Virus record (IMG/VR): IMGVR_UViG_2737471832_000007 | From: a virus | Lineage: Duplodnaviria > Heunggongvirae > Uroviricota > Caudoviricetes | Direction: 5' to 3' (one strand) | DNA length: 13,484 nucleotides | In this document: positions 1 to 13,484 of the stretch, one piece after another | Layout: each line of letters starts with the position of its first letter | How positions within the stretch are numbered: position 1 is the first letter of the stretch | Program-made: the position numbers and the translations under genes | The notes under the pieces: generated by a model | Told to the model about the DNA's origin: nothing | The model's input: only the letters and a program-made list of their open reading frames with translations | The model's database searches: none

Positions 1-18
1 CGGAAGTCGCTGTCGTTT

Positions 19-813
19 TCAAAATCGGTGGAGCTGCATGACAAAGTCATCGGGCATTATCTGAACATAAAACACTATCAATAAGTTGGAGTCATTACCG
101 CTGTGTTTAACATGTTTTTTGATATATGATTTATTTTTTAATGCCCAAGAAACCGAATGCGTATATATGCTATCAAAACAATGTGATACATCTAACATCC
201 ACATCACCGAGAATCTTTTCTCAAGCTCAATAAACATCTTACTTTGAAATAGTTTATATATCCTGTTGAAACCGCCATAACTAAAATAAGAGGATGAATA
301 TTTCCTCATTAACTCATCCTTTGTTGTTTCGATATCTTCCCCTTTATATTTTTCCAAAGCATTATTTTCATATAAAAAGAAAGAGTTAGCGACCTTACGT
401 GGGTAGCGAATAGAAAAATTACTTTTTAAAGTATTTAATGTGATAACGGATGAGTATGTTTTATAAAATTCCGAATAATTAATTTGAGATCTTGGGTGAA
501 TTAAAGAAAGATGTCTTTGGCTAAAGGCATCTTTTACTATACAATAGCCAAATGGGGAGCTTTGTTTCTTCTTTTCTCGGTGGCGATCTGCGACACTAAT
601 AGAAGAGTCTAAATTAGGGTTAACTATTTTTTTTAAGAAAGAAGAAACCGGAGTAAAATGTAACAAATCATTACAAACTCTATCATATTCTGTTAAGTTT
701 ATATATAAGCCATCATTTGAAAAAATAATTGGACAATCACCGGGCAGTGTATCACATAGTAAAGCCCTGAGATAATCTTTCTTATCAAGTTTAATGTTTT
801 TCTTTATAACCAT
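19..813 (-). CDS. RT-like protein 2: RT fingers and motif A only; possibly a truncated or frameshifted second reverse transcriptase
   Basis: ATG at 813 overlaps the 3' end of the upstream RT gene by 10 nt. Residues 91-107 CIVKDAFSQRHLSLIHP resemble RT domain 1; residues 206-216 MLDVSHCFDSI (coords 166-198) match RT motif A. No motif B or C before the TGA at 19-21. AT-rich. Confidence 0.5.
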   Translation of the reverse strand: MVIKKNIKLDKKDYLRALLCDTLPGDCPIIFSNDGLYINLTEYDRVCNDLLHFTPVSSFLKKIVNPNLDSSISVADRHREKKKQSSPFGYCIVKDAFSQRHLSLIHPRSQINYSEFYKTYSSVITLNTLKSNFSIRYPRKVANSFFLYENNALEKYKGEDIETTKDELMRKYSSSYFSYGGFNRIYKLFQSKMFIELEKRFSVMWMLDVSHCFDSIYTHSVSWALKNKSYIKKHVKHSGNDSNLLIVFYVQIMPDDFVMQLHRF

Positions 814-2081
814 ATTTTTGTAATCTCAGTATAGCGCTTAAAGTTATACTTTCTATATACTCTATCCACAAAGCCTTTTCTAAAACTATTTCTTAGCAGT
901 TCTTTTTTTTGCTTCAAATTAAAAGGTTTTTTTGCAACACTATTCAAACGCCCAGTATTAGATTGCACACAATATAGCAAAAAGTCATCTAATTTTTTTA
1001 GGGATATGGAGTCAACATCTAACTTCGCATTACTGTAATAAATACCTGTACTTATCTTGCTTTTTTCTAAAGAACTTAACGATTTTATTTTGCGATTTAA
1101 ATCCCTGTTACTAGTCAAAAAAGAAATCCTGTCTAGCAATAGTTTAAAATCACCATTAATATGATAAGAGTAGAAAGACCTAGCTATTCTTGTTTTAATT
1201 TTCTTCAGGCGAGATTTAGATAAATTAACAACAACCTTTCTGTAACAGCTATTAATCTCACCATCTTTGCTCAAAGGTGTGTCTATTATAGAAAACGAGT
1301 ACCCTAGAAAGTCAAATTCATGAAGCAATTTATCCTGTTTATTTAAACCCTTACTTCTCTTTGGTATGCATGGAGATATTTTTAATTTATTTTTATTTAA
1401 AGCCAATCCCTTTGGTAATACATCTTGTATAAATTCCATAAAGGACGCTTCACATTCACAACCACTTGAAACGATTACCATATCATCTACAAATCTTGAA
1501 TAATAAAATACTTCTGGATGCCTATGAATACTATTATCAAATTGTGCCAAGTACAATTCTGATAACATAGGACTAATTTCTAACCCTCTAGGTAATCCTT
1601 TCGAAGAGTGAAGCCTTTCACACGATTTAAGATACCATTCTAGCAAATTTTTTGTATGTCTAGACAGTCGTGTTTCGTTATGTAAGAGCTGAAAAAGCTG
1701 CGGTAAATCAATTGATTCAAAGAAAGACTTTATATCCAAACGATATATTTTGAATGGAGTACCTTCTTCCAAATAAATTTTAAGCTCACTAATTATTGTA
1801 TTTCGTTGTTTGGGACGAAGCGATTCAAGGCATTTTAAATTTGCATTGCAATGTCTAAGTATTATTTTTTCCTTCAAACATGAAGCAGTGTAAACGCAGC
1901 GTCCCTTAATATTTAGTTTCTTTACACTCACACCAGAGCGAAAATTCTCATTAGCAATTAAAACGGCATCACTAATTAATGATTCTAACTCAGCAACATT
2001 ATTTTTTTTAAAATAATAAGCCTTCTCACTTTCACTTAAGTTTCGTTTAAGTGCTGCTGAAGTAAACGGCTGACGGTTCAT
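804..2081 (-). CDS. Reverse transcriptase (defence-associated UG/Abi/DRT-like), 425 aa
   Basis: ATG at 2081 with GAGGG Shine-Dalgarno. Motif A LDIKSFFESI (coords 1710-1739), motif B GLPRGLEISPMLSELYL, motif C FVDD (coords 1482-1493), FLGY motif at residues 258-261, plus a ~165-aa C-terminal extension. No retron VTG motif and no maturase domain. Confidence 0.8.
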   Translation of the reverse strand: MNRQPFTSAALKRNLSESEKAYYFKKNNVAELESLISDAVLIANENFRSGVSVKKLNIKGRCVYTASCLKEKIILRHCNANLKCLESLRPKQRNTIISELKIYLEEGTPFKIYRLDIKSFFESIDLPQLFQLLHNETRLSRHTKNLLEWYLKSCERLHSSKGLPRGLEISPMLSELYLAQFDNSIHRHPEVFYYSRFVDDMVIVSSGCECEASFMEFIQDVLPKGLALNKNKLKISPCIPKRSKGLNKQDKLLHEFDFLGYSFSIIDTPLSKDGEINSCYRKVVVNLSKSRLKKIKTRIARSFYSYHINGDFKLLLDRISFLTSNRDLNRKIKSLSSLEKSKISTGIYYSNAKLDVDSISLKKLDDFLLYCVQSNTGRLNSVAKKPFNLKQKKELLRNSFRKGFVDRVYRKYNFKRYTEITKIWL

Positions 2082-2129
2082 AATACCCTCATTAAACTAT
2101 CCTCTGTACTTTTTATAGCTCTTTCCATC

Positions 2130-2428
2130 ACTTCCCGCAATCGTATCTCCACAACAGCGACCGCTTTATATAGTAATTTTCATAACTTCGATTACAGCTC
2201 AAAACATGCGGTAACCGTGCCATAGTTATACCATTCAACGCCCTTACGCGGGCAGCCCCGCACGCCTGCCCGCTTCGCTTAACAGACTGGTTTTCATGCA
2301 TGCCATAAATCGTCTCAGATACCACCACACAAAGGTTTTCGCCTCAAAAAGGGTGCATAAGACTCATGCATTTTCATGCGCCATAGACATGCACTCATAC
2401 GCTCTCAGGCCAGCCAGGGAAAAGGTGT
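2130..2428 (-). ncRNA. Candidate structured noncoding leader or template RNA upstream of the RT gene (hypothetical)
   Basis: About 350 nt with no convincing ORF between the delta terminator and the RT start. Contains a perfect 8-bp GC stem (2248-2255 pairing 2266-2273), a CATGC-rich motif cluster and an imperfect ~19-bp direct repeat (2291-2309 and 2371-2389). Confidence 0.25.
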
Positions 2429-2455
2429 TAAAAATCCCGGTACTCGACCGGGATT
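2429..2455 (-). terminator. Intrinsic terminator of the late operon
   Basis: Stem ATCCCGG/CCGGGAT (2434-2440 pairing 2448-2454) with a 7-nt loop, followed on the minus strand by TTTT; sits ~20 nt after the delta stop. A T7 run at 2465-2471 on the plus strand may give bidirectional function. Confidence 0.5.
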
Positions 2456-2475
2456 ACGTGGGCGTTTTTTTCTAA

Positions 2476-2748
2476 TCAGACAGGAATCTGCTGACGGCTT
2501 GACAGTTTTGACGCGGAGCCATAGCGATTGAGCGTTTGCTGTTGTTTTACCGGGGGTTGTGATTTGTCTGGTTCCTGTTCATTGCGCCGGGGTTTCATGA
2601 TTATCTTATCCACACTCTCCAGTGCCGTAAATGTGCAGGAACATTCCAGATTCTGGCACTGATACCACGAGCGTTTAACTGACGGAGCTTCATAGGCTGC
2701 TGTTCTGGCGTGTGCAACTGTACCGCATTCCGGACATTTAAGTGCCAT
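2476..2748 (-). CDS. delta: Ogr/Delta-family zinc-finger late-gene transcriptional activator
   Basis: Exact C-x2-C-x22-C-x4-C spacing (CPEC...CQNLEC), the Ogr/Delta finger. ATG at 2748 with GGAG upstream; the ORF-track start at 2757 is a GTG extension. About 90 aa, single domain. Confidence 0.8.
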   Translation of the reverse strand: MALKCPECGTVAHARTAAYEAPSVKRSWYQCQNLECSCTFTALESVDKIIMKPRRNEQEPDKSQPPVKQQQTLNRYGSASKLSSRQQIPV

Positions 2749-2753
2749 TAATA

Positions 2754-3305
2754 TCACTCCTGTATATCGTTAATGTCATTCAGGCGTTGCTGAAAACGCA
2801 GATGTTGTGCCGGGGTGTAAGAACCCTGGCAATCACGAATCATCCCGGGGTCAGGCATCAAACCGGATTCATCCAGGATCTCACGATAATCCCCAGCAAT
2901 TTCAGGCGGTGTTATTGCCAGCTGGCGAACCAGAGCACTGCGTAATATACGGGACGCAACGTCAACCCCTCCGCGCCCCTTCAGGAACGGAGCCAGTGCA
3001 GATGTCAGGGCTGCCCCATTCGCCTGCATAAAATTGCTGAGAGCGGCTTCTGTGCAGGCCTCCATCAGTAAATGCTGCGAGTAAATGCATTCGCGCGCAG
3101 CACAGTTAATTTGCCATTTCAGCACATCCAGACGTTCCCGCAGTAATTCGAGCTGTCGGGCATAATCTGCTGGTTTTTCTGTGGCAGCGAGGAGAGATGT
3201 TATCTGTTGTTCAACGGCTTTTCGGCTCTCATTATGTCCGGCCCACAGAATGCGGGCATTCCGAAAACTGGTAAGTGCCTGGTCAGGCGTGCCTCGGGCC
3301 GTCAT
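2754..3305 (-). CDS. psu: Polarity suppression protein Psu homologue
   Basis: 183 aa. Segments LDVLKWQINCAARECI, FMQANGAALTSALAPFL and YTPAQHLRF resemble P4 Psu as recalled. Strong AAGGAG Shine-Dalgarno; ATGA overlap with the upstream ORF. Confidence 0.75.
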   Translation of the reverse strand: MTARGTPDQALTSFRNARILWAGHNESRKAVEQQITSLLAATEKPADYARQLELLRERLDVLKWQINCAARECIYSQHLLMEACTEAALSNFMQANGAALTSALAPFLKGRGGVDVASRILRSALVRQLAITPPEIAGDYREILDESGLMPDPGMIRDCQGSYTPAQHLRFQQRLNDINDIQE

Positions 3306-3619
3306 ACTGCTTTCTCCTTCTCAGCAAGTTCCTGACGAACCTTAATTTTATGCATAGCTGCCGGAGAGAGTTGATTACTGAAATCCAGACGCGCCGCATA
3401 ATCCGGGGCAACTCCCGCCAGTTTAAACACCGGGTCCTGCTCAGGCATCGCATCGTTAGCCAGAGCCGGTCTGGTGATATGTTTATGAATAAAGTCTTTC
3501 AGCACTGTGTCCGGGTCATTAACTGAATTCACCACACCCACAACGGCACTGGCTTCCCGGCCCATTGTGGATTTAAGCAGGCTCAGCGTCTGAATAAGCG
3601 CTTTTCCATGCGACTGCAT
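3302..3619 (-). CDS. Late-operon protein, unknown function (possibly the C-terminal part of a Sid-like protein)
   Basis: 105 aa; ATG at 3619 preceded by AGGAGG; stop overlaps the psu start (ATGA). Same reading frame as ORF 3629-4045, separated by one TAG and three codons. Confidence 0.6.
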   Translation of the reverse strand: MQSHGKALIQTLSLLKSTMGREASAVVGVVNSVNDPDTVLKDFIHKHITRPALANDAMPEQDPVFKLAGVAPDYAARLDFSNQLSPAAMHKIKVRQELAEKEKAV

Positions 3620-3628
3620 AAAATCCTC

Positions 3629-4045
3629 CTAGATTTGTTTTGCGCGAATATCCACAAGAATGTTATGCGCGTGGATATACTTTCCGGCTAATTCTGCAGC
3701 TTTCTGCGGCAAAAGTGCATTTTCGCTTTCCTGAGCCGCCAGCAGCTCATCAAAATCCTCAAGCGTTTCTCGTCCCAGCGCAATTTCCGTGCGCAGTTTT
3801 TTCATTTCCTTTGAGACCACGCCCTGACTTTCACGAAACAGCGTGCGCCACTCCTCATTCAGTGTGTTCGTCGTGGCTTCCATTTCAGCGCGACGCTGGC
3901 GGATTGTCGCAATATTATCCGCTGCCGCTTTCTGCTGACGACGTGCTTCAAGCCATGCGTTTCTGGCTGTGTTCATGGTTTCCAGTGCCCGCTGCGTTAC
4001 AGCCGGAAAAGTGGAAAGGTTGTTATTTACTGCGGTATTGTTCAT
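3629..4045 (-). CDS. First gene of the Delta-activated late operon; putative Sid-like protein
   Basis: 138 aa, helical/coiled-coil-like composition; ATG at 4045 with AGGAG 5 nt upstream; sits just downstream of two TGT-N12-ACA dyads. Position is analogous to P4 sid; identity not confirmed. Confidence 0.55.
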   Translation of the reverse strand: MNNTAVNNNLSTFPAVTQRALETMNTARNAWLEARRQQKAAADNIATIRQRRAEMEATTNTLNEEWRTLFRESQGVVSKEMKKLRTEIALGRETLEDFDELLAAQESENALLPQKAAELAGKYIHAHNILVDIRAKQI

Positions 4046-4079
4046 GACTTCTCCTGTCGGGTTGGTTCGTTACGTCAAT

Positions 4080-4135
4080 TGTGTCGTGGCTGACACAAGC
4101 ACACTATCGGTGTTCAGTGTGTGGTGGCTGGCACA
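4080..4135 (-). promoter_or_regulatory. Late promoter with two Ogr/Delta-type activator sites (TGT-N12-ACA)
   Basis: TGTgtcgtggctgacACA at 4080-4097 and TGTgtggtggctggcACA at 4118-4135, centres 38 bp apart, upstream of the ATG at 4045. Confidence 0.5.
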
Positions 4136-4223
4136 ACGGGCGCTTGCGGTTATTCAGACGTGGCTATGAAAGCCAGCCAGATAAAAATGCCCTCTGTTTC
4201 AGTCTGCTTTATGTCCCTGATGC

Positions 4224-4411
4224 GGTGGAACAGGTGAAACATGTGTTACAGCTTTGTTTTATAAGACATTTATATACACTGCACCGGTGAAACATCGCGG
4301 GTAACAAGGTGGAACAGCGGATTGGCTGGCGTTACATCTGTTCCACCTCACTATTTCAGAAGGTGGAACAGGTTCAGCCCTGTAAAATACGGTTGTTCCA
4401 CCTGTTTCACC
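4224..4411. repeat. Iteron cluster, crr/ori-like replication region
   Basis: Eight copies of GGTG(G/A)AACA: direct at 4224, 4233, 4286, 4308 and 4362; inverted (TGTT(C/T)CACC) at 4339, 4394 and 4403. Lies immediately downstream of the alpha gene; resembles the P4 TGTTCACC type-I iterons as recalled. Confidence 0.6.
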
Positions 4412-4445
4412 TGTTACCCTTAATAAATAAGACTCACGCAAAGCC

Positions 4446-7118
4446 TTAACCCGGCACCTCGCTGTTGAAGACATAGAGCCTGCGGGGATTCATCTCTGGC
4501 GGGCGAATGGTTGTCTGGAGTTTGCCATCAGTGGAGGGCAGCAGGTATCCACGATCTGCGCACAGACGCGCCACCTTGCGCGGGTCAAATCCCCTGCAGA
4601 TTTCTTTCCAGCCGGACGGCATGACATAGAACGTAGTGACAGCTTCCGTGCCCTGCGCGGTACTGCCTTTCTCCACCCTGCGCCAGCCCACCATATTGCC
4701 GGGGCGGTTGCGCTCGTCATACCAGTCTGCAAAGCGGCTGTACTGATTCGCGGTGAAGAAACTGCGAACCTGCTCCAGTGCGGCGATATCTTCCTGATTG
4801 GCGGTGTGCCCGCGATCTTTCAGCCATGCGTTCAGGCAGACGCGGGTTGCCCGCAGTGCTTCACCCTCAGGCCAGCCGGTGATACCCAGACGGGTTGCCA
4901 GTTCACCTGCCATCGCCACCAGAGCAAAGCGGTTCACAGCCCGGCCCACCTGATTGCCTGCATCTTTCGGAGTCAGGGCGGCAGCATATTCCTTCATCAG
5001 CGATTTTGCCTGTGCCGTTAGTCCGTTAAGATCAGCGGTCAGTGCTTTCAGCCACTCCCGGAACGGCGAACCGTAGTAGCAGGACGTGGCCCATTCAAGA
5101 TGCTCTGCCAGAGCCTTGCCGCTGTCGAAGCCGTGCAGCTCCTCAAAAACGCCAAACTTCCCGGAATCGCTGGGGATCTGGATCATCCTGACTTCCATCC
5201 CGGCAAAAGTACGCTCACCGGCCTTTGCCGCATGTTCGGTCAGAGACAACTCGCCAGTTGAAAAGAACAACAGGCGCCACTGCTTACGGGTACGCAGCTC
5301 ACCGTCCGTACCGGCACGGCCCTTGCCCTGACCGTTTGCCAGCATGTAGGCGATATTGCCTGCCTCGCGTCCGTCAACTTCCCGGATCTCATCAAGCATC
5401 ATGGCGGCATCGTTGCGGCGGCTGGCGCATCCCTCCAGCGCGTTGCCGGTGGCCCGCCATGTCTGCCAGTAGTCAGGCCCGCCGCAGACGGAGGTTGCCG
5501 CTTTCATGGTGGTGGTCTTACCGTCTGTCGATTCCCCTTTGAGGTGGTAGCCGCCGCCGTCCATACCAACCAGCCGTAACAGTGGTGCAGCAAAGGCCAG
5601 GCTGACAGCAAATGCCACGCGGGAGTTGCCGGTACAGTAGCGGGATACATGCTCCCGCCATTCCTCTGTTGTGCCCGACACGCGGAAATCACGCCCCTGC
5701 ACGGAAGTGGTCTGGAGAATGACACCCTCTGCACCTTCACCGCTGACCTCATCCTGCAGGACGTAAACCTGACCATGCCAGCCAGTACGACTGACGCAGG
5801 TCACGCGGCGTTCCGGTTTACACAGTGAGATATATTCCATCAGGCGTGCGCGTGCCTCACCGGTGGTGCTGATATAAGACAGCCCGTTAACCAGCAGTAC
5901 CCGGCGCAGTTCCTCACCACTGCCGCTCAGCATTTCCATCGGCATCGCCCAGCGGCGACACTCACCCCACGTATCTTCCCATTCCAGCAGTCGTCCGAAG
6001 TTACCGCCATCGGCATCGCAGGTGATTGCCGTCACGCGCAGCGGGCTGCATATTTTGACGTTCTGGATCTCCGTCTCACCGTTGCGCTGTACCTGCTTTT
6101 CATACCAGAGATATTCCTGGGTAAGACGGAACCCGTGCGGCAGTTGCGTGCGGCCTTCCCCGCACAGTACCAGACCGTTGCGAAAGGCTTCACGGGCACG
6201 GGTAATACCGTGCTCCCGATGAAAGTCATTCCAGTCAGCCTTAATCTCTCCTGGTGGCAGCGTCATCCAGCCGCCAACAGCTTTTGCCGCCCGTTCAGCA
6301 AAGGCTCTGCCGGGATTCTCACCTCCGTCCTGAAAATCGTTATCACCGGCGATGATAATTTTTACCTCAGGCCAGCGTGCCCGCAGCGACTGCGCCACAT
6401 TGGGCAGGTTGCCCGCAGATATGGCAGCCACTACGCATCCGGCAGTGAGCTGACTTACCGTCAGCGCCGTAGCGTAACCTTCGGTAATCACCACCTGTAC
6501 CGGTGGTTCAGACGGTAACGGGCTGAGCGACACAAACGCGCCTTTCATCGTGCTGCCGGGCAGTATGCTTTTTTCACCCGTCGGGGCGATAAGCTGTGCA
6601 CCAGTCACGGCTCCGGTGTTGGTCGTGAGTGGTAACAGCAGGGAACCGGCAGGAAAATCCTTACCGCTGATATGCTGCACGCTTCCGGTCAGAGAGGCCG
6701 GGTATCCGGCGAACCCTTTTCCTGTCAGATAGGCGCTTTCTCCCGTGTGGCTCTCTTTCATCAGCGCCGCCACGGTAAGACCCATGTCGCGTTTAGGGGC
6801 TTTTTGTCTGGCAGGCTTAACAGGCAGTTCCTGCACATCCGGCACATTAAGCACCTGCGCCACCTCCTGCGCAGCCTTTCTGATGCTGTAACCGGTTACG
6901 AGCTTAACCAGATCCAGACCGTCACCATTGCCACACTGGCTGCAGATCCACGTCCCGCGCCCGTCAAGGTCATCAAGGCGAAAACGATCCTTGCCCCCAC
7001 ATTTCGGGCAGGGACCGTGCCTGCCGTTTTCAGGTACATCAATACGCAGCATCTGGAGAATAACGGGCCATTTCCCCCGTGCGGCGGCTGAAATCTGCGT
7101 AACCGTCTGTATTGTCAT
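4446..7118 (-). CDS. alpha: Alpha-type DNA primase-helicase (zinc-binding N-terminus, primase, D5-like helicase)
   Basis: 890 aa. N-terminal CPKCGG...CSQCG zinc motif, GKT Walker-A-like motif, and overall resemblance to P4 alpha. ATG at 7118 in an ATGA overlap with the upstream ORF. Confidence 0.85.
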   Translation of the reverse strand: MTIQTVTQISAAARGKWPVILQMLRIDVPENGRHGPCPKCGGKDRFRLDDLDGRGTWICSQCGNGDGLDLVKLVTGYSIRKAAQEVAQVLNVPDVQELPVKPARQKAPKRDMGLTVAALMKESHTGESAYLTGKGFAGYPASLTGSVQHISGKDFPAGSLLLPLTTNTGAVTGAQLIAPTGEKSILPGSTMKGAFVSLSPLPSEPPVQVVITEGYATALTVSQLTAGCVVAAISAGNLPNVAQSLRARWPEVKIIIAGDNDFQDGGENPGRAFAERAAKAVGGWMTLPPGEIKADWNDFHREHGITRAREAFRNGLVLCGEGRTQLPHGFRLTQEYLWYEKQVQRNGETEIQNVKICSPLRVTAITCDADGGNFGRLLEWEDTWGECRRWAMPMEMLSGSGEELRRVLLVNGLSYISTTGEARARLMEYISLCKPERRVTCVSRTGWHGQVYVLQDEVSGEGAEGVILQTTSVQGRDFRVSGTTEEWREHVSRYCTGNSRVAFAVSLAFAAPLLRLVGMDGGGYHLKGESTDGKTTTMKAATSVCGGPDYWQTWRATGNALEGCASRRNDAAMMLDEIREVDGREAGNIAYMLANGQGKGRAGTDGELRTRKQWRLLFFSTGELSLTEHAAKAGERTFAGMEVRMIQIPSDSGKFGVFEELHGFDSGKALAEHLEWATSCYYGSPFREWLKALTADLNGLTAQAKSLMKEYAAALTPKDAGNQVGRAVNRFALVAMAGELATRLGITGWPEGEALRATRVCLNAWLKDRGHTANQEDIAALEQVRSFFTANQYSRFADWYDERNRPGNMVGWRRVEKGSTAQGTEAVTTFYVMPSGWKEICRGFDPRKVARLCADRGYLLPSTDGKLQTTIRPPEMNPRRLYVFNSEVPG

Positions 7119-7498
7119 ACTTCCCCCTGATACAACGTCACACCGGTACTGCAGAAGTCATCAAAGGCCGCCGGAAGCGTGCGGTACATCTCCGCCATCA
7201 CTTCACAGCCGCGCGCGGTCAGTACCGGCGGCGCGGTCAGCAGTGACGGCTCCAGCATGTCAGTCAGCAGTGCCAGCGCGGCAGCGGCGCCCTGTGCTTC
7301 GCCGTACTCGTTAATCAGTACGCACTCGATATGCAGCGCAATGGCCATTTCAATACGCTCCACCGTCAGGCTGTGCGGACCATACTGATCACTGCCAGTT
7401 TCGTTCAGCATTTTCTGCCGCCATGCTGAAGCAATAGCCCGCCGGTAAAGCGCGGTGGTCATTTCTGCCGGGAAAATGGAAACCTGCGGCTGGTTCAT
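7115..7498 (-). CDS. Early-operon hypothetical protein
   Basis: 127 aa; ATGA overlaps at both ends (coupled to the upstream ORF and to alpha). Confidence 0.55.
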   Translation of the reverse strand: MNQPQVSIFPAEMTTALYRRAIASAWRQKMLNETGSDQYGPHSLTVERIEMAIALHIECVLINEYGEAQGAAAALALLTDMLEPSLLTAPPVLTARGCEVMAEMYRTLPAAFDDFCSTGVTLYQGEV

Positions 7499-7779
7499 CT
7501 GGCACCTCCTTCAATCAGTGCGCAGCTGTGTGCAATATCCGTCAAATCTGCCAGCAGGTACTCCATCAGCGCGGCGACACCATGCGCACAGCCAGTGTCC
7601 AGTGCTCCGGCCTGAGACGGGTATTCAGAAAAGAGAAGCTGGAGCATGTCGCAGGCATTTCTTGCGCGGGTCAGCTTTCCGAAACTGTCCTCTGACAACC
7701 CATAGGCAAAAACACCGGTATTGTGTTTTTCAGGCAAAGTGTGGCCCTGAGCACCGTTGTGCCCGTTTGAAATATTCAT
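7495..7779 (-). CDS. Early-operon small protein (possibly epsilon-like, by position and size)
   Basis: 94 aa; ATG at 7779 with GGAG upstream. Assignment is positional only. Confidence 0.5.
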   Translation of the reverse strand: MNISNGHNGAQGHTLPEKHNTGVFAYGLSEDSFGKLTRARNACDMLQLLFSEYPSQAGALDTGCAHGVAALMEYLLADLTDIAHSCALIEGGAR

Positions 7780-7810
7780 CGTGGATTACTCCGTTTTCAG
7801 CGGTATTGTG

Positions 7811-8170
7811 TCAGAGAAACTTTGAATAGTGACCGTCATCAGGCTCAGCAGAACGCCATATGCTACGCTCCCGCCAGCGGATAAATAGCACAGACGGATG
7901 CAGTGTCAGCGGGCCGGAACCACTACCGCCTGCAGGAGCTGGTGCAGGCTTAAAGAGCGGTACATCAAACAGGCGCGTATATCGCTGTTCAAACCATGCC
8001 AGAGGGCAGGAAGAAAGCTGGTTGTCGCTGTCATGACGTATCAGCACTTCACAGCTGAATTCAGGATTAACCAGCGCCACAGAGGGCGAGGCTTCTATTA
8101 ATCGGATAATCGTGACCGTCCAGCCACGTTCATGCTGCCAGCGTTCGCCGGGATGCGGATAATTACGCAT
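7811..8170 (-). CDS. Early-operon hypothetical protein
   Basis: ATG at 8170 preceded by GGAGG (MRNYPHPG...). The ORF-track start at 8200 is a non-ATG extension. Confidence 0.55.
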   Translation of the reverse strand: MRNYPHPGERWQHERGWTVTIIRLIEASPSVALVNPEFSCEVLIRHDSDNQLSSCPLAWFEQRYTRLFDVPLFKPAPAPAGGSGSGPLTLHPSVLFIRWRERSIWRSAEPDDGHYSKFL

Positions 8171-8339
8171 GTTCACCTCCGCAGGGAATGCGCCCGGCAA
8201 AGCTCAGTACATAGTCCGGGGCAAGTCTGCGCCGCGCTGACCGCTCGTTATCTGCGGTGATCCTTAACATCACAGGACGGGCATTGCGTTGACTGCGGTT
8301 GATCGCCGCAAATAACCAGGTACACTTCTGTTTAGCCAT
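8163..8339 (-). CDS. Small first ORF of the early operon (58 aa), unknown function
   Basis: ATG at 8339 with AAGAGG upstream; TAA at 8163-8165 overlaps the next gene's ATG (ATGCGTAA). Below the ORF-track size cutoff. Confidence 0.4.
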   Translation of the reverse strand: MAKQKCTWLFAAINRSQRNARPVMLRITADNERSARRRLAPDYVLSFAGRIPCGGEHA

Positions 8340-8367
8340 CTTCGTTACCTCTTATAACGGTTGGTTA

Positions 8368-8402
8368 AATGCCCGATTTGTGTTCCCGCACAATCGGGCA
8401 TT
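8368..8402 (-). promoter_or_regulatory. Long stem-loop in the early-operon leader
   Basis: AATGCCCGATT (8368-8378) pairs perfectly with AATCGGGCATT (8392-8402), with additional inner pairing; lies between the divergent promoter region and the first early ORF. Confidence 0.35.
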
Positions 8403-8428
8403 GCTTTTACAAGCGAACTATACTTACA

Positions 8429-8474
8429 ATGGTAATTACCATGTAGTCATCATATTCTAGGGTAATTACCATGT
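8429..8474. promoter_or_regulatory. Two palindromic operator sites in the divergent promoter region
   Basis: Perfect 14-bp palindrome ATGGTAATTACCAT at 8429-8442; second copy GGTAATTACCATGT at 8461-8474 overlaps the RHH start codon. Spacing is 30 bp. Confidence 0.5.
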
Positions 8475-8644
8475 CAACACCACAAGAGAAACGTTCTCCA
8501 CCATTCCAAATGCGTCTTACCGACGATTTTAGGTTGCAACTCGAAAACGAAATGCGCAAAGATGGAGATAGCGCGTTGGCAACTTGGATTAAAAGAATTT
8601 TACGCAAAGAACTCCAATCACGCGGGATTGACCCTAAAGGCTAA
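8471..8644 (+). CDS. Arc/MetJ-type ribbon-helix-helix DNA-binding protein (57 aa)
   Basis: FQMRLTDDFRLQLENEMRKDGDSALATWIKRIL matches the Arc-like RHH pattern. ATG at 8471 with AGGGT upstream, TAA at 8642-8644. Not in the ORF track because it is under 60 aa. Confidence 0.55.
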   Translation: MSTPQEKRSPPFQMRLTDDFRLQLENEMRKDGDSALATWIKRILRKELQSRGIDPKG

Positions 8645-8676
8645 TCAGTTAAATATTACTAACTATCAATTAAGGC

Positions 8677-8967
8677 TTAGGGAGTAGGTGATAATCTATT
8701 CCCTTTATTAATTGCTCTTGCCTTATTTCTCATCCCCTCAAACTGTTGACCTGAGTTTTCTTCAAACCCATCTCGCCACTTATAATAATCAGCAGCGCGC
8801 CATCGTGACATCCGACCTATTTTTATAGGTTTTGGAAAGCGATTCAGAGAAATCAATCGATAAATCCATTTATCACTTAATAAACAATCGGAAGTAATAA
8901 ACTTCATATCGATCAGAGAATCCATTGAAGGTCGTTGCAAAGTAGTATTATCATGTTTAGATAACAT
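8677..8967 (-). CDS. AlpA-family phage regulatory protein / Vis-like DNA-binding protein
   Basis: WIYRLISLNRFPKPIKIGRMSRWRAADYYKW matches the AlpA HTH and FPKPIK signature. ATG at 8967 with GGAG upstream; an internal start at 8925 or 8907 is possible. AT-rich. Confidence 0.7.
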   Translation of the reverse strand: MLSKHDNTTLQRPSMDSLIDMKFITSDCLLSDKWIYRLISLNRFPKPIKIGRMSRWRAADYYKWRDGFEENSGQQFEGMRNKARAINKGNRLSPTP

Positions 8968-9092
8968 TCATCATTCTCCGTTTATCTAAGTCTATTGGCT
9001 TCAACACGGAAAATTAAAACATAGGTTATAAATGAGAAAAATGTGACTAATGAAAAAAATTCAAAATCATTAGCCACAACAATTGTTAATAT

Positions 9093-9917
9093 TTAGTTAA
9101 ACTTAATGTTTTTCATGCAACTACGTAGCAAACTAACAACAGTATCATAGCTCAAAGGCGGTTCTCCGGTCTTAGGCCAGAACTCACTGGCATGTTGAAA
9201 AAGATAATCAGCTATCGCTGCTGGACTCTCTCTTCTTAGCCTCATATCACGATGATAGAGCGAAATAATAGCCATGAGTATTTCAGCTCGAGGAACAGCA
9301 TGTTTTTGTTTTTGCGCCTCAGATTGTGATTTATATTTATTGGCGTTTTTTATCCGCTTTTGTTCGCATAAGACTATATCAATGAATTTTTGAATCTGTA
9401 CCTTTGTAATCCACAAAACCTCAAAAAGATAATAATTTTCTTTTTCATCATAATTTACATAAAGAATTACCTTACAATTTATATTAGGCGTACCCGCCAG
9501 TAGAAAATGAATAGGCCAGGAATCCGGTTGCCCCTCATGCTTAACTAACAGATCTTTATATTCATAATCAACAGCCCATAAACCGGATATGAAGCATCGA
9601 ATAAAACCATTTTTATCAATTAAATTATCTTCATCAGGGATTCTTATAGAACTTAAGTCTGACAACATAATATTGCCATTTCTATCTCGTGGTAAATATT
9701 TCAGATTAGATAAGAACTCATCTATTTGACCATCAATCTTCAAACCACATGAAACATCATACTCATCATCATGGAATTCCATGCATAGCTCTACATCTCG
9801 TTCTCTGGCAAACCAGAGTATATCCTTTTCACTACAACCAATTTTTTCTGAAGCTTCATCCAACTGGTAGTAATCTCTGAGCAGAGAATCAGTATTATTA
9901 ATTTTTAAAATATTCAT
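9093..9917 (-). CDS. Unknown 274-aa protein translationally coupled to the integrase
   Basis: ATG at 9917 overlaps the int stop (ATGA). AT-rich; possible N-terminal HTH-like stretch (EKIGCSEKDILWFARE). No recognisable family. Confidence 0.6.
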   Translation of the reverse strand: MNILKINNTDSLLRDYYQLDEASEKIGCSEKDILWFARERDVELCMEFHDDEYDVSCGLKIDGQIDEFLSNLKYLPRDRNGNIMLSDLSSIRIPDEDNLIDKNGFIRCFISGLWAVDYEYKDLLVKHEGQPDSWPIHFLLAGTPNINCKVILYVNYDEKENYYLFEVLWITKVQIQKFIDIVLCEQKRIKNANKYKSQSEAQKQKHAVPRAEILMAIISLYHRDMRLRRESPAAIADYLFQHASEFWPKTGEPPLSYDTVVSLLRSCMKNIKFN

Positions 9918-11104
9918 TTATGAGTACCAATTTGCTCAGATAAATAATTAGCATACCATTGCATCATTTCTCTTCTCCCTTCGAGATATTGGGCATGGTT
10001 ATAAATTCCACGAATAGAGTTTTTGTCCGAATGAGCAAGCTGGGTTTCAATCCAAGCGCTGTTAAATCCTTTCTCATGTAGGATTGTACTCATCGTATGC
10101 CTGAAACCATGCCCCGTAACACGCCCTGCATATCCAATACGTTTAAACACCTGATTAATGCTTGCTTCACTCATAAATTTGCTGGGATCGTTGCGTCCAG
10201 GGAACATCAGCGGGTAGTTCCCAGTTAGTTCTTTCAAACTTTTGAGATGGGATAATGCTTGTTTTGACAACGGGACAATATGGCTCCTACGCATTTTCAT
10301 ACGTTCTTTTGGGATCTCCCACACCGCATTATCAAAATCCACCTCTCGCCACTCACCTGCTCGTAGTTCTCCAGTTCGTAGACCTGTCAGGATAAGTAAA
10401 TGCGCCCCCAACAATACAATTGGACTTCCTGAATAAGAATTAAGGGCATTAAAGAACTCCGGTAGTTCGTTGGCTTTGAGGAATGGATAGTGGACTGCTT
10501 CATGTCCTTGCATCGCACTGGCAAGATCCGGTGCCGGATTGTAGATTGCCCTACCCGTTACGATGGCATAGCGAAAAACTTCACCGCATCGCTGACGGAC
10601 TTTCTTCGCTTTCTCCATAGCGCCTCGAGCTTCTATCAACCTCAGAACTTCAAGCAGTTCAAGGGGCTGAATATCAGCTATAGGTCTGTGCCCAATATGC
10701 GGGAAAATGTCTTTCTCGAATGCCTCAATGATGTCGGAAGCATAGCCCTCAGACCATTTGGGTGATTTCATTTTGTGCCACTCTAACGCCACTTCTCTGA
10801 ATGGGTTAAGTGTCTCACTCGCTGCATTTAAAGCCTGCTTTTTGGCTTTTTTGACTTCGCCGGGATCTTCACCTGCTGCGAGTAGTTTCTTCGCGTCTTC
10901 TCGTTTTTGTCTGGCATCAGCAAGTGTGACTGTTGGATAAACACCAAAGGACAATCGTTTCTCTTTACCAGCAAAACGGTATTTCATACGCCAGTAACGC
11001 GAGCCATTAGGTTCGACCTGAAGGTATAGGCCACCTCCATCAAACAGCTTGTAGCTCTTCTCTTTTCCTTTCGCAGCTTCAACCTTGCGGGCATTCAGCA
11101 TCAT
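9914..11104 (-). CDS. int: P4-type tyrosine integrase
   Basis: N-terminal arm-binding signature (KLFDGGGLYLQVEPNGSRYWRMKYRFAGKEKRLSFGVYP); catalytic HGFRHT and GIYNHAQY motifs. Likely start is the ATG at 11104 (MMLNARK...); the ORF-track start at 11173 is a TTG extension. Confidence 0.9.
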   Translation of the reverse strand: MMLNARKVEAAKGKEKSYKLFDGGGLYLQVEPNGSRYWRMKYRFAGKEKRLSFGVYPTVTLADARQKREDAKKLLAAGEDPGEVKKAKKQALNAASETLNPFREVALEWHKMKSPKWSEGYASDIIEAFEKDIFPHIGHRPIADIQPLELLEVLRLIEARGAMEKAKKVRQRCGEVFRYAIVTGRAIYNPAPDLASAMQGHEAVHYPFLKANELPEFFNALNSYSGSPIVLLGAHLLILTGLRTGELRAGEWREVDFDNAVWEIPKERMKMRRSHIVPLSKQALSHLKSLKELTGNYPLMFPGRNDPSKFMSEASINQVFKRIGYAGRVTGHGFRHTMSTILHEKGFNSAWIETQLAHSDKNSIRGIYNHAQYLEGRREMMQWYANYLSEQIGTHK

Positions 11105-11180
11105 TGGGGGCACATTTCCTAGATCGAACAGAACATGCCCCTGATTGTGCCCCCAACCGCGTGTTGATTTCAAGAGACAA

Positions 11181-11254
11181 GGGTTGACCTCAAACGTATG
11201 AAAACAACGTAATATATATGTTTTTAAATGATTTTGTTGATGTGGGTTGACTTG
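11181..11254. repeat. Direct repeats GGGTTGAC(C/T)T between int and the att core (candidate Int arm-type sites)
   Basis: GGGTTGACCT at 11181-11190 and GGGTTGACTT at 11244-11253. Confidence 0.3.
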
Positions 11255-11268
11255 GGAAAACTAGGTGA

Positions 11269-11314
11269 TGGTGCCGATAATAGGAGTCGAACCTACGACC
11301 TTCGCATTACGAAT
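11269..11314 (-). tRNA. Partial tRNA-Thr(CGU): 3'-terminal 46 nt only (att core, not a functional tRNA)
   Basis: Reverse complement reads ATTCGTAATGCGAAGGTCGTAGGTTCGACTCCTATTATCGGCACCA: anticodon loop with CGT, T-arm, acceptor 3' strand and CCA. The 5' D-arm and acceptor half are absent upstream. Confidence 0.7.
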
Positions 11315-11618
11315 TATAAGAATCCGCTTCTAATTCAAAGCATTACCCCATCAACACTGCGCTCACAAGTCCCACCACATCAAAACATGTAAAGCCTTGC
11401 AAGCCATTGCTAGGCCTTATGTGTCTCAGTTTTGTCCCACTACGACCCGCATAACCAATAAGAAGATTGCAGTGATGTCAAACGACACAGCAGCCTTCTT
11501 TTCCTTCATACTTTCCCCACCCAGCATGCATACCTTCTACCATAACTGTAGTGAATGTCTGTTATGAGCGAGGAGCGGAAGTTGGAATGCATACTTAAAT
11601 CGAGCAATTTTGAGTTAT

Positions 11619-11626
11619 GGGGGGGG
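11619..11626. repeat. Homopolymeric G8 tract upstream of the 384-aa gene
   Basis: Eight consecutive G at 11619-11626, about 30 bp upstream of a TATGAT -10-like hexamer (11655-11660). Confidence 0.6.
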
Positions 11627-11707
11627 CTGGTCAACCTACTGAATTGTTTTTGCCTATGATAACGGTCACAATCAACCTCTAAGTGTGCTGATTTGAAAGT
11701 GATTTCC

Positions 11708-12847
11708 ATGAAGATGACCAAGGCAGATTTTGGTGTAACTATTGATGATACTTTAATAACTGATTTTCGAGATGTGGTTAATGAAGGGGAGTTTGCTTAC
11801 AGCTACTTCATAAACAGAAATGGTAAAAACCAGTTCAGCCCTATCTGTTCGTGCATGGATTGGATAAGCGTTTCTGTTCGCAATCTGATGAACTTCCCTG
11901 AGCTGTCGGAAGATATTGATGTCAAGGCCATGCAGGTTTACTCCCTTATATCATCTATTGATATTGCTGTGGAGGCGTTGCAGCAGCTTCACCGCATCAT
12001 TGAGAGTGATGATAAGTTAGCGAGGTGGCCTTTCAAGAAATCAACGAATGTCTTTAAGAATAAAACGCCCTATCTTTCACATGAGGATGATGACGCATAC
12101 TTTAAGAGTATTCGAGCTATCTTTGGTGCTCACCCTACAAATCTTAAAAATAGTGATGGTGAGCGACTGTTTGCAAGCTGGCCTCATTTTCATGCTTTCA
12201 ATGAAAATGATTTCACTATAAGCCTTTACAACAACACGTCAGGGAAAGATGATGTTATTTTCGGCATTAAATTCGATGAGCTAATTACATATATTGAAGA
12301 TAGGTATAAATATCTAACAAGCCTAAAGGGTTCCGTAATAGCAATCCGTATAAAACATTACAGCACCCTATCCAAACAGATTATACCGTCTACTGATAAC
12401 ATTCATGCTGAGTTAAAGTTGCTTCTTTCAGAAGTTGCGGTGCGAGGTGATAACGATTATTACCGAATGGAAGTGGAAGAGTTAATAAAGTTGTTCGAGG
12501 GGAATGTTAAAGAGGCACATCTCAAGGATGAAGCTGACGTATTTTTAAGTAAACTACATCCAATTGCAGTAGAGATTAGATATAATCTTCAGGAAATGAA
12601 TATTGAGGATTTAGCAACTAAGCATGGCGTGTTGATTTCAACACTTCCGAAAAATGCCCTGCATTACGTTCTTCAGAAAATGTTTACTTGGCTCCACTCT
12701 GATAGATATGACCCAATGGGTGGCTTTTACTTGGACAAGTTAAATGAATATTCAGGCGGGCGATACAATTTTTGTTCTGAGGATGATGACAGTACAACTC
12801 TATTGAAGCTCCGGATGATGTTGCATTGGTATCATCAACAAAAATAG
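11708..12847 (+). CDS. Orphan 379/384-aa protein of unknown function (possible Abi/HEPN-like; unconfirmed)
   Basis: Long AT-rich ORF ending TAG at 12845-12847. ATG at 11708; the ORF-track start at 11693 is TTG. Contains an R-x5-H stretch (RAIFGAH). No family recognised. Confidence 0.6.
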   Translation: MKMTKADFGVTIDDTLITDFRDVVNEGEFAYSYFINRNGKNQFSPICSCMDWISVSVRNLMNFPELSEDIDVKAMQVYSLISSIDIAVEALQQLHRIIESDDKLARWPFKKSTNVFKNKTPYLSHEDDDAYFKSIRAIFGAHPTNLKNSDGERLFASWPHFHAFNENDFTISLYNNTSGKDDVIFGIKFDELITYIEDRYKYLTSLKGSVIAIRIKHYSTLSKQIIPSTDNIHAELKLLLSEVAVRGDNDYYRMEVEELIKLFEGNVKEAHLKDEADVFLSKLHPIAVEIRYNLQEMNIEDLATKHGVLISTLPKNALHYVLQKMFTWLHSDRYDPMGGFYLDKLNEYSGGRYNFCSEDDDSTTLLKLRMMLHWYHQQK

Positions 12848-13144
12848 GCTTAGCCACGAAAACAAGCAATACAGTTGGAAGTTCGTGTGACCTATGCGCT
12901 AGGTATTCTGAGACGACAGTGTGACCTGCTCCCTGTTGATTAACATAGGCTGACACTAGCAACGTCCTCTACTGGCACATAGCAGCCCCAGAGACAGTGG
13001 TGTAAAGTCATGGAGGGTCGGTGGGAGGATATTCAGTTTCATTCATGCCGAAATACGGTAAAATCTATAATAGATGGAAATCATTCAATACTCGCACTAA
13101 AGTCCACCATCCAGCCGCAGCAAGTTCTTGCATACGACGTGTCT

Positions 13145-13172
13145 GCGGGTTCAACTCCCGCCAGCTCCACCA
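13145..13172 (+). other. tmRNA (ssrA) 3'-end-like fragment; possible second att core
   Basis: GCGGGTTCAACTCCCGCCAGCTCCACCA matches the 3' terminal T-arm and acceptor of enterobacterial tmRNA as recalled. No tmRNA 5' domain or tag reading frame upstream. Confidence 0.45.
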
Positions 13173-13302
13173 ATCATGATTGGACGGTGTAAGGACAACA
13201 CCAATAAAAACAGGAAGTTAGCAGTCTCAGCAGGACACCAACCAGACGGTGAGCAGACAAAAAAGGATACGCAAAGGAGCCGCGGCTCCCAAGTGACATG
13301 AA

Positions 13303-13325
13303 AGCCCGCATCTGCGGGCTTTTTC
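13303..13325 (+). terminator. Intrinsic terminator
   Basis: GCCCGC (13304-13309), loop ATCT, GCGGGC (13314-13319), followed by TTTTT. Confidence 0.55.
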
Positions 13326-13484
13326 GTTTCATCTGCAAAAATGTCTATACATCAGCTGCCACAAACGGAACAACAGCCTTTATTGATGTAAGCGTCGTCT
13401 CAGCACCGTCTGGCAGATCCTGAAATTCCTGAGAGAATAGTGGACACCAAATATGGTGGACGCTATCCATGAAATCATTAACCG

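Follow-up and report, generated by a model that had tools for sequence, protein, structure and literature searches.

A DRT3 anti-phage operon of a P4-like satellite, very probably cut off by IS1 within its second reverse transcriptase gene

The two tandem reverse transcriptase (RT) genes of this viral DNA are very probably a copy of DRT3, a known anti-phage system, in which the second gene has been cut off by an IS1 element. The copy is carried by a P4-like satellite integrated at a tRNA-Thr gene, in the psu-int hotspot of that satellite (Table 1; the window denotes the whole stretch of 13,484 nucleotides that was analysed). DRT3 was identified in 2020 and has been the subject of several studies (Gao et al. 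2020; Mestre et al. 2022; Wang et al. 2026, PMC13174585, on EcoDRT3, PDB 26cz), with Deng et al. 2026 also dealing with DRT3, as cited in PMC13314766. The system found here is thus an already known one, for which the mechanism and structures were published in 2026 (PMC13174585; PDB 9z6y, 9z6z and 26cz, the first two of which carry chains named Drt3a and Drt3b).

At the DNA level, positions 100-2500 of the window were 100% identical to RefSeq-annotated drt3a/drt3b loci in twelve or more complete E. coli genomes, and positions 100-11314 were colinear, with 99.95% identity, with the P4-like satellite that E. coli WCHEC025970 carries at tRNA-Thr (locus L001), where RefSeq (PGAP) names the genes drt3a and drt3b and the whole drt3a-drt3b-ncRNA unit spans about 10300-14250. 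The layout is that of DRT3, with drt3a directly followed on the same strand by an overlapping drt3b and both proteins matching the curated Drt3a and Drt3b families. The overlap of the drt3a stop with the start of the second ORF, which an earlier note on this DNA had pointed out from the sequence alone, is 10 nt long (window 804-813, ATGGTTATAA) and is the same in the annotated DRT3 loci. Intact relatives, which are 100% identical to the window over the shared DNA, go on to carry a downstream ncRNA region with an ACACAC sequence.

Table 1. Features of the RT module and the neighbouring satellite genes, in window coordinates
Feature	Position	Strand	Evidence
Right end of IS1: last transposase codons and terminal inverted repeat (...GTTGGAGTCATTACC)	1-99	+	
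264-aa ORF: drt3b stub with IS1-derived tail	19-813	-	ORF list, protein comparison
Chimeric tail: 26 codons (GNDSNLLIVFYVQIMPDDFVMQLHRF) and stop, antisense of the IS1 end	19-99	-	
5' fragment of drt3b (UG8), codons 1-238 of 672	100-813	-	Identity to WP_048217707.1
drt3a, intact, 425 aa, UG3, class 2 RT	804-2081	-	NCBIfam, PADLOC, PDB
Cargo-specific region upstream of drt3a, presumed promoter region	2082-2246	-	Conservation edge at 2247
Conserved satellite segment between delta and cargo	2247-2475	-	Present in satellites without DRT3
delta, Ogr/Delta zinc-finger activator	2476-2748	-	Pfam Ogr_Delta 7.5e-16; RefSeq colinear locus
psu, polarity suppression protein	2754-3305	-	Pfam Psu 1e-44; colinear locus annotation
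sid-like gene with premature stop W139*, not part of DRT3	3302-4045	-	Comparison with L001

The first of the two genes is complete. Its product was assigned to Drt3a by the NCBIfam equivalog NF041747 (361.6 bits against a cutoff of 200, with profile positions 1-412 of 412 covered), by the PADLOC Drt3a profile (6e-131) and by an end-to-end alignment with PDB 9z6y_A ('Drt3a reverse transcriptase protein'; 4.9e-56), with Pfam RVT_1 also found at 1.3e-16; the RT signal of both ORFs is far above chance in Pfam (RVT_1) and PADLOC. The protein is identical to WP_001471072.1 and to the drt3a product of WCHEC025970, and exactly the same protein was found in 1,380 blocks of public assemblies. The RT motifs that had been read earlier from this ORF were all located, with motif A (LDIKSFFESI) at residues 115-124, GLPRGLEISPMLSELYL at 162-178, motif C (FVDD) at 197-200 and FLGY at 258-261; the aspartate of motif A and the xVDD of motif C are both present, and LDIKSFF (residues 115-121) and FVDD aligned with LDIHSFY and YVDD of 9z6y_A. 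Compared to EcoDRT3a, the window protein is longer (425 aa against 398 aa) and has FVDD in place of YVDD as motif C, a Phe for Tyr exchange that is shared by the 92.7%-identical allele of strain C21, and FVDD also occurs in intact, widespread alleles. The second-best family for Drt3a in PADLOC was RT_UG17 (1.8e-29), in keeping with the class 2 assignment of Drt3a beside DRT10 in the literature. Drt3a scored about 100 bits with DRT10 (UG17) against 435 bits with the Drt3a family, and the present module differs from DRT10 in having no SLATT effector and a second RT as the partner.

The second ORF, which the earlier note had taken for the second gene of a candidate antiphage system, is an incomplete gene. 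Its product is identical to WP_048217707.1 over the first 238 residues and diverges thereafter, so that only residues 1-238 of the 672 of a full-length Drt3b are present, fused in frame to IS1 antisense codons (239-264) at a junction that coincides with a codon boundary (residue 238 at window 100-102). The stub matched the PADLOC Drt3b profile at 2.2e-77 over profile positions 2-218 of 651 only, and NCBIfam NF041748 over positions 1-209 of 647 only, with 234.9 bits, which is below the cutoff of 350; the intact relative reached 613 bits against the same cutoff and aligned end to end with PDB 9z6y_H (a chain named Drt3b; 9.5e-113) and with 26cz (1.3e-78). The RT-like segments that had been noticed in this ORF lie at residues 92-107 (IVKDAFSQRHLSLIHP) and 206-216 (MLDVSHCFDSI) of the stub.

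Residues of Drt3b were mapped by alignment to PDB 26cz and 9z6y, with residue roles taken from PMC13174585. The acidic residue of the dA gate is kept in the stub (D26, equivalent to E22 of EcoDRT3b in an ungapped alignment to 26cz with an offset of 4), the E22D variant of this gate being common and partly active (PMC13174585), and the motif A aspartate is kept as well (D208 in MLDVSHCF, aligned with D182 of 26cz). In the intact allele the match to DRT3 extends from D26 and motif A to the Arg gate (R268, equivalent to R241 of EcoDRT3b), YVDD (303-306) and the C-terminal tyrosine (Y672, at the ...KESY end). These last three, comprising the Arg dC gate, the YVDD motif and the priming Tyr, all lie beyond codon 238 and are lacking from the stub, as is the alpha-Rep oligomerisation domain.

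At its full 672 aa, Drt3b is an AbiK/DRT4-like class 1 RT, and the earlier remark that neither ORF was large enough for an AbiK-type enzyme was an artefact of the truncation of drt3b. Both the stub and intact Drt3b share the RT core with the class 1 UG/Abi RTs (AbiK, DRT4/UG15 and Abi-P2), which are protein-primed, template-independent enzymes. Matches of Drt3b to this group were found in PADLOC (Drt4, 3.6e-11; AbiK, 2.6e-05) and in the PDB (7r08, 5.9e-21; UG15, 3e-15; AbiK, 1.6e-11), with scores far below those for Drt3b itself. AbiK, DRT4 and Abi-P2 are single-RT systems with random or other products, whereas Drt3b is here paired with a class 2 RT.

It is scarcely credible that the two genes form a distinct, undescribed two-RT UG/Abi system that merely resembles DRT3, as the earlier note had allowed. 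Identity of the window allele to the 9z6y proteins is modest (about 36% for Drt3a and about 37% for Drt3b), Drt3b is more distant still from EcoDRT3b (268 bits with 26cz against 381 bits with 9z6y) and motif C of Drt3a is FVDD, not YVDD, but Drt3a and its intact partner Drt3b both score well above the curated equivalog cutoffs given above, both align end to end with PDB chains of the same names, the downstream ncRNA region of the relatives holds an invariant ACACAC template, and PGAP applies the names drt3a and drt3b. Identity is settled by the solved structures together with the curated equivalog models, and the idea of a distinct system is effectively refuted by family, PDB and annotation evidence, with both proteins squarely in curated families and the DNA fully identical to annotated loci. 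The DRT type 3 (UG3 plus UG8) architecture, which had been named as a resemblance, was borne out by the proposed profile-HMM search, which placed the proteins in the Drt3a and Drt3b families and not among retron or group II intron RTs.

A retron or group II intron origin was considered separately and rejected, with TIGR04416 reaching 71.7 bits (cutoff 300) and the retron St85 RT 50.7 (cutoff 235). A search of the whole window against Rfam at gathering thresholds gave no hits, and so no group II intron or retron RNA.

The window starts within IS1. Its first 99 nt matched the 3' end of a CDS annotated as IS1 family transposase (hit H23, locus L005), and their terminal repeat agrees with the inverted repeat of IS1. 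Copies of this end were found at 72,288 places in 4,999 of the 5,426 E. coli genomes (median about 10 per genome). Homology to intact DRT3 loci begins exactly at base 100, and drt3b sequence meets IS1 precisely at the final nucleotide of the terminal repeat (...CATTACC followed by GCTGTG...), which marks a genuine transposition junction and not a random chimera. The 9-mer at window 100-108 (GCTGTGTTT) is the expected duplicated target of an IS1 insertion.

An assembly or contig-end artefact at a repeat, with DRT3 intact and functional in the real genome, is an unlikely source of this junction. The IS1 part is no longer than 99 nt and lies right at the border of the window, a picture that a short-read contig end would also give, and the junction could in principle stem from a subpopulation or a mis-join. 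The public loci that were read with an identical Drt3a mostly (9 of 10) have an intact 672-aa Drt3b, and the junction is unreplicated among the public sequences searched: it was absent from the 5,426 complete E. coli genomes, none of which covers positions 1-2500 contiguously, a 39-nt IS1/drt3b junction probe had no match in IMG/VR or in GTDB representative genomes, and the chimeric 264-aa protein had no exact match in the protein-exact index. Against an artefact, however, stand the coincidence of the switch, to the base, with the end of the IS1 repeat, the fact that assemblers enter a repeat only if reads span the junction, and the abundance of IS1 in E. coli. A true IS1 insertion in drt3b was retained as the preferred reading.

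In published DRT3 the ncRNA sits downstream of drt3b (PMC13174585). In the intact relatives of the window the drt3b stop is followed by a conserved structured region of about 250 nt, which is closed by a long stem and contains an invariant GCTTACACACCTGATG; the distance from the stop to the ACACAC sequence is 234 nt in 9 of the 10 loci that were read and 233 nt in the remaining one, L012, which is frameshifted. The WCHEC025970 satellite has the same order, with an intact drt3b and then the conserved structured ncRNA region with its ACACAC template. The window differs from DRT3 on both counts, with drt3b ended by IS1 and an ACACAC-template ncRNA absent downstream of it: positions 10100-12000 of L001, which hold the rest of drt3b and the ncRNA region, matched the window only in a 25-nt att repeat. 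The family identity, the point of truncation, the junction with IS1 and this lack, within the window, of the ncRNA and the end of drt3b were all directly observed. The missing 3' part and ncRNA may persist 0.8 kb away, beyond IS1 and outside the window, and the ncRNA gene would at best be split from the window operon by IS1. An ncRNA in the upstream leader, with which the earlier note had proposed to clone the module, was rejected, as the published ncRNA lies on the other side of the operon and neither promoters nor terminators scored beyond the level of shuffled sequence in the region upstream of drt3a, where no promoter was confidently identified.

According to the published work on intact DRT3, Drt3a copies the ACACAC template of the ncRNA into poly(dT-dG), and a Drt3b hexamer primed on the C-terminal tyrosine makes poly(dC-dA) without a nucleic-acid template, by means of a Glu/Asp gate and the Arg gate. 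The two strands anneal to dsDNA that is normally removed by RecBCD, and upon inhibition of RecBCD by a phage (by lambda Gam) the dsDNA accumulates and leads to abortive infection; the poly(dTdG)/poly(dCdA) dsDNA and the Gam/RecBCD-dependent abortive infection are experimental phenotypes (PMC13174585). Defence by EcoDRT3 depends on the active sites of both RTs and on the ACACAC template of the ncRNA, and also on Y666, E22/R241 and the trimer interface (PMC13174585), and all three DRT3 components were essential in Gao 2020, according to the review PMC13314766. In the window, IS1 has very probably inserted after drt3b codon 238, Drt3a is intact, and Drt3b has lost the Arg gate, YVDD, the alpha-Rep oligomerisation domain and the priming tyrosine. 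The window DRT3 is most likely non-functional, probably a defence pseudogene, because it lacks the YVDD active site and the priming tyrosine of Drt3b as well as the ncRNA template, each of which was needed for defence in the published work. We infer this loss of defence from mutant phenotypes published for a homologous system, EcoDRT3, to which the window proteins are, by HMMER scores, less closely related than to the 9z6y system.

That the remnant still functions, with Drt3a alone or the 264-aa Drt3b-IS1 fusion acting in defence or regulation and the ncRNA possibly supplied from beyond the insertion, is very unlikely. The drt3a gene is fully intact and identical to a widespread allele, and in vitro Drt3a and the ncRNA make poly(dTdG) without Drt3b when given only dGTP and dTTP, but with all four dNTPs little Drt3a product is made unless Drt3b protein is present (PMC13174585). 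Moreover, defence in vivo required both active sites, the ncRNA is outside the window and separated from the operon, and the stub has neither the motif C catalytic aspartates nor the oligomerisation domain. Loss of function remains the preferred reading of the copy.

According to published data, strains mutated in recB, recC or recD are unable to maintain DRT3, and the system kills cells that express a Gam-type RecBCD inhibitor. The IS1 knock-out of drt3b might conceivably have been a selected escape from DRT3 self-toxicity and not random decay, though we regard this as doubtful; insertional inactivation of the poly(dC-dA) polymerase would be favoured in a host lineage in which RecBCD is weakened or a resident prophage releases some Gam-like protein. 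In a weaker variant of this idea, Drt3a and the ncRNA alone would keep some role after the loss of Drt3b.

The surroundings of the RT genes are those of a satellite. Pfam matches identified psu, delta, an alpha primase (DUF927, Toprim and primase Zn-ribbon) and AlpA, sid and an integrase are also present, and in the colinear RefSeq locus the integrase adjoins tRNA-Thr and the att repeat lies beyond the ncRNA. The module sits between psu/delta, on the cos-proximal side, and att/int, and the earlier observations that it directly follows delta/psu and is AT-rich were both confirmed, with a GC content of 0.317 in the cargo (100-2246) against 0.554 in the satellite core (2247-8300). The psu-int defence hotspot of P4-like satellites has been described as directly adjacent to cos (Rousset et al. 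2022, PMC9122126), and the window resembles it in having AT-rich cargo directly after psu/delta beside a cos-proximal segment, along with the core genes and an integrase at a tRNA. Curated families and satellite genes agree in supporting the earlier view of defence-type RTs in the hotspot of a P4-like satellite. Satellites of this type that carry other cargo (H24 and H25, without DRT3) matched the window only from 2247 upward, with 98.8% identity in the conserved segment between delta and the cargo, which is where Rousset et al. put the cos-proximal edge of the hotspot. The cos site itself was not located, as a P2/P4 cos 19-mer gave no match with up to 3 mismatches.

Two other AT-rich ORFs are present in the window (274 aa and 384 aa), and these had no matches in Pfam, NCBIfam, PADLOC or PHROGs.

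The premature stop of the sid-like gene is due to a single base at window 3630, which is T here and C in L001 (TGG to TAG). In a survey of P4-like satellites, <1% of pseudogenes resembled defence genes and transposable elements were infrequent (preprint 10.64898/2026.02.27.708500). The window copy differs from this picture in having both an IS1-disrupted defence gene and a sid nonsense mutation, and the satellite is one of the uncommon decaying copies.

The finding has little discovery value, given that DRT3 has been known since 2020, RefSeq already names the genes and Drt3a is widespread. It does offer two corrections for the reading of such loci: where a short second RT appears in a scan, IS termini should be checked before a new architecture is called, and the place to look for the DRT3 ncRNA is beyond the end of drt3b, not ahead of drt3a. 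The rarity of defence pseudogenes in P4-like satellites in the recent survey makes this the sole unusual point of the window copy, and a small ecological point follows the same lines, namely that a defence system appears to have been inactivated in place within a P4-like satellite with a broken sid. The dependence of DRT3 on RecBCD provides a testable reason why the system may be counter-selected.

The two tandem ORFs, which overlap by 10 nt (ATGGTTATAA), were both found to match DRT3, the anti-phage system of Drt3a (UG3), Drt3b (UG8) and an ncRNA, as the earlier note had thought plausible. The 425-aa protein matched PADLOC Drt3a at 6e-131 (next family RT_UG17, only 1.8e-29), scored 361.6 bits across the whole NCBIfam equivalog profile NF041747 (curated cutoff 200 bits) and aligned end to end with PDB 9z6y chain A, 'Drt3a reverse transcriptase protein' (4.9e-56); by these comparisons it is assigned as Drt3a, a full family member. 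The 264-aa protein matched PADLOC Drt3b at 2.2e-77 over profile positions 2-218 of 651 only, with an NCBIfam Drt3b score (234.9 bits) under the cutoff of 350. A retron or group II intron origin was rejected, both NCBIfam model sets falling far under their cutoffs, and an Rfam search of the window found no RNA family. The earlier description of the locus stood as regards its ORFs, its motifs, all located in the two proteins, its AT-richness (G+C 31.7%, against 55.4% in the adjoining satellite core) and its position directly after delta/psu (Pfam Psu 1e-44 and Ogr/Delta 7.5e-16 in adjoining genes); the truncation of the second gene had been overlooked.

Features of the locus: ORFs in window nucleotides, motifs in residues of the window proteins, and Drt3b functional residues in EcoDRT3b and window-allele numbering
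Feature	Position	Strand	Role or basis	State in window
425-aa ORF (drt3a)	804-2081	-	ORF reading, family profiles	
264-aa ORF (truncated drt3b + IS1 antisense tail)	19-813	-	ORF reading, family profiles	
384-aa ORF	11693-12847	+	in island past 11314	
Drt3a LDIKSFFESI	aa 115-124			
Drt3a GLPRGLEISPMLSELYL	aa 162-178			
Drt3a FVDD	aa 197-200			
Drt3a FLGY	aa 258-261			
264-aa protein IVKDAFSQRHLSLIHP	aa 92-107			
264-aa protein MLDVSHCFDSI	aa 206-216			
EcoDRT3b E22	D26 in this allele		dA gate	kept
EcoDRT3b D182	D208 in this allele		motif A	kept
EcoDRT3b R241	R268 in this allele		dC gate	lost
EcoDRT3b Y276-D279	303-306 in this allele		YVDD	lost
EcoDRT3b 323-621			alpha-Rep oligomerisation domain	lost
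EcoDRT3b Y666	Y672, final residue in this allele		priming Tyr	lost

When window 1-2500 was compared by megablast with 5,426 complete E. coli genomes, the DRT3 module was found in 21 (12 of the matches listed being 100.0% identical), all matches beginning at base 100 and carrying the RefSeq labels drt3a, drt3b and ogr/Delta. Bases 1-99 matched 72,288 places in 4,999 of the genomes and, in match H23, aligned with the 3' terminus of a gene annotated as an IS1 family transposase; the window thus starts inside IS1. The junction reads ...GTTGGAGTCATTACC on the left, which we take to be the IS1 terminal repeat, and GCTGTGTTTAAC... on the right, where drt3b continues. Window 100-11314 is colinear with 12001-23215 of L001, the tRNA-Thr satellite locus of E. 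coli WCHEC025970 (NZ_CP036177.1; 99.95% identity, 6 mismatches), in which the drt3b product is 672 aa. The Drt3a proteins are identical, and window Drt3b equals that of L001 over exactly 238 residues and then continues into the IS1 antisense strand for 26 codons, where it meets a stop, the junction lying on a codon boundary (residue 238, window 100-102). The 99 bases of repeat at the window edge also resemble a short-read contig end, and no second copy of the junction was found in complete E. coli genomes, the exact-protein index, IMG/VR or GTDB representatives; an artefact, whether contig end or chimera, is nonetheless very improbable, as drt3b gives way to IS1 precisely at the end of the element, a position that favours real transposition over a chimera. 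This transposition may be a simple IS1 insertion, with the remaining drt3b and ncRNA ~0.8 kb further on, or may instead be an IS-mediated deletion.

The intact allele aligns full-length with PDB Drt3b chains (9z6y_H, 9.5e-113; 26cz, EcoDRT3b, 1.3e-78), and residue roles were taken from Wang et al. 2026 (PMC13174585), where E22D is described as frequent among homologues and partially active. Neither the 3' part of drt3b nor the downstream ncRNA region had a match anywhere in the window. In DRT3 the ncRNA gene follows drt3b (PMC13174585), and ~250 nt 3' of the drt3b stop is conserved in all three alleles L001, L002 and L003 (DNA identity to the window 100%, 89.6% and 78.6%), with an invariant GCTTACACACCTGATG. 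This region folds into a structure closed by a stem of 12-13 bp (GUGGUCAGUUUC with GAGAAACUGACCAC); covariation among three sequences being thin, the fold is taken as no more than added support for the published ncRNA. ACACAC lies 234 nt past the stop in 9 of 10 loci read, and at 233 nt in L012, a public copy with frameshifted drt3b. A 25-nt direct repeat (24/25 identical; L001 10280-10303 and window 11268-11292) marks the two att ends in the intact relative; the ncRNA, lying past the drt3b stop but short of the distal att site, is thereby placed within the satellite.

In intact DRT3, Drt3a with the ncRNA synthesises poly(dT-dG) off the ACACAC template, and Drt3b, a hexamer primed on its own C-terminal tyrosine, synthesises poly(dC-dA) with no nucleic-acid template, using an acidic and an arginine gate (PMC13174585). 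The products anneal to dsDNA normally held in check by RecBCD; the RecBCD inhibitor lambda Gam causes growth arrest in DRT3 cells, and recBCD knock-outs cannot maintain the system (PMC13174585). Defence is abolished by active-site mutants of either RT, ncRNA template mutants, Y666F, E22 or R241 mutants and trimer-interface mutants (PMC13174585), and all three components are essential (Gao et al. 2020, per review PMC13314766). As the window allele is without four required elements at once, its DRT3, judged by the homologous system studied, is most likely dead.

Three defining features of DRT3, namely full-length Drt3b, its catalytic and priming residues, and the ncRNA, are missing from the window, so that the module is classed as disrupted DRT3, neither an intact member nor a new type; it is a disrupted copy of an already known system, and the suggestion of a possibly distinct UG/Abi system was not upheld. 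The proteins of this allele are ~36-37% identical to those of the 9z6y DRT3, and its Drt3a has FVDD in contrast to the YVDD of the DRT3 systems studied; this is an ordinary DRT3 lineage, though a divergent one. In public assemblies, 1,380 blocks list the exact Drt3a protein, with an intact 672-aa Drt3b at 9 of the 10 places read among them. In L012 (GCA_014105175.1, JABXTN010000001.1), of the same allele, a 1-bp drt3b frameshift near codon 442 (~6594) may reflect either an error in sequencing or a second inactivation that arose independently.

Further along the window come a primase of the alpha type (DUF927, Toprim, primase zinc ribbon), a regulator resembling AlpA, and an integrase. The DRT3 is located in the psu-int hotspot, adjacent to cos, that is described for P4-like satellites (Rousset et al. 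2022, PMC9122126). Between integrase and regulator, a 274-aa ORF (9093-9917, - strand) in a second AT-rich stretch (~33% GC), which the relative shares under the label 'hypothetical protein', had no match in Pfam, NCBIfam, PADLOC or PHROGs; the satellite may have here another slot for accessory genes or cargo. Past the integrase lies only the 3' 46 nt of tRNA-Thr (att repeat, 11268-11314), and ARAGORN found no tRNA. Colinearity with WCHEC025970 stops at 11314 and a different island occupies 11315-13484. Its 384-aa ORF had no match in the same four collections; in strain MS 85-1 a homologue has an RnlA/RnlB toxin-antitoxin pair ~1 kb away. These observations suggest a second island in tandem at this tRNA, which may likewise be involved in defence. 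In none of the ten listed genomes sharing this ORF region does the match (query 33-2190 of window 11200-13484) take in the last ~95 bases (13390-13484), which may mark a further rearrangement or a repeat boundary at this edge of the window.

In P4-like satellites, <1% of pseudogenes are reported to resemble defence genes and transposable elements to be infrequent (2026 preprint, 10.64898/2026.02.27.708500), so an IS1-broken defence gene is somewhat unusual. In a different P4-like satellite, L005 (NZ_CM132215.1, 1887-3795), a same-orientation IS1 abuts the end of a hotspot cargo gene, which encodes a 398-aa hypothetical protein and adjoins ogr/Delta; the distal end of the hotspot may therefore be a recurrent target of IS1. 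The sid-like gene of the window (3302-4045, - strand; 247 aa in the relative) carries a premature stop, W139* (TGG to TAG at base 3630), dividing it into ORFs 3629-4045 and 3302-3619, and together with IS1 in drt3b this suggests that the whole satellite copy is decaying. It is improbable that the IS1 insertion was itself selected on account of the toxicity of DRT3 in cells with compromised RecBCD.
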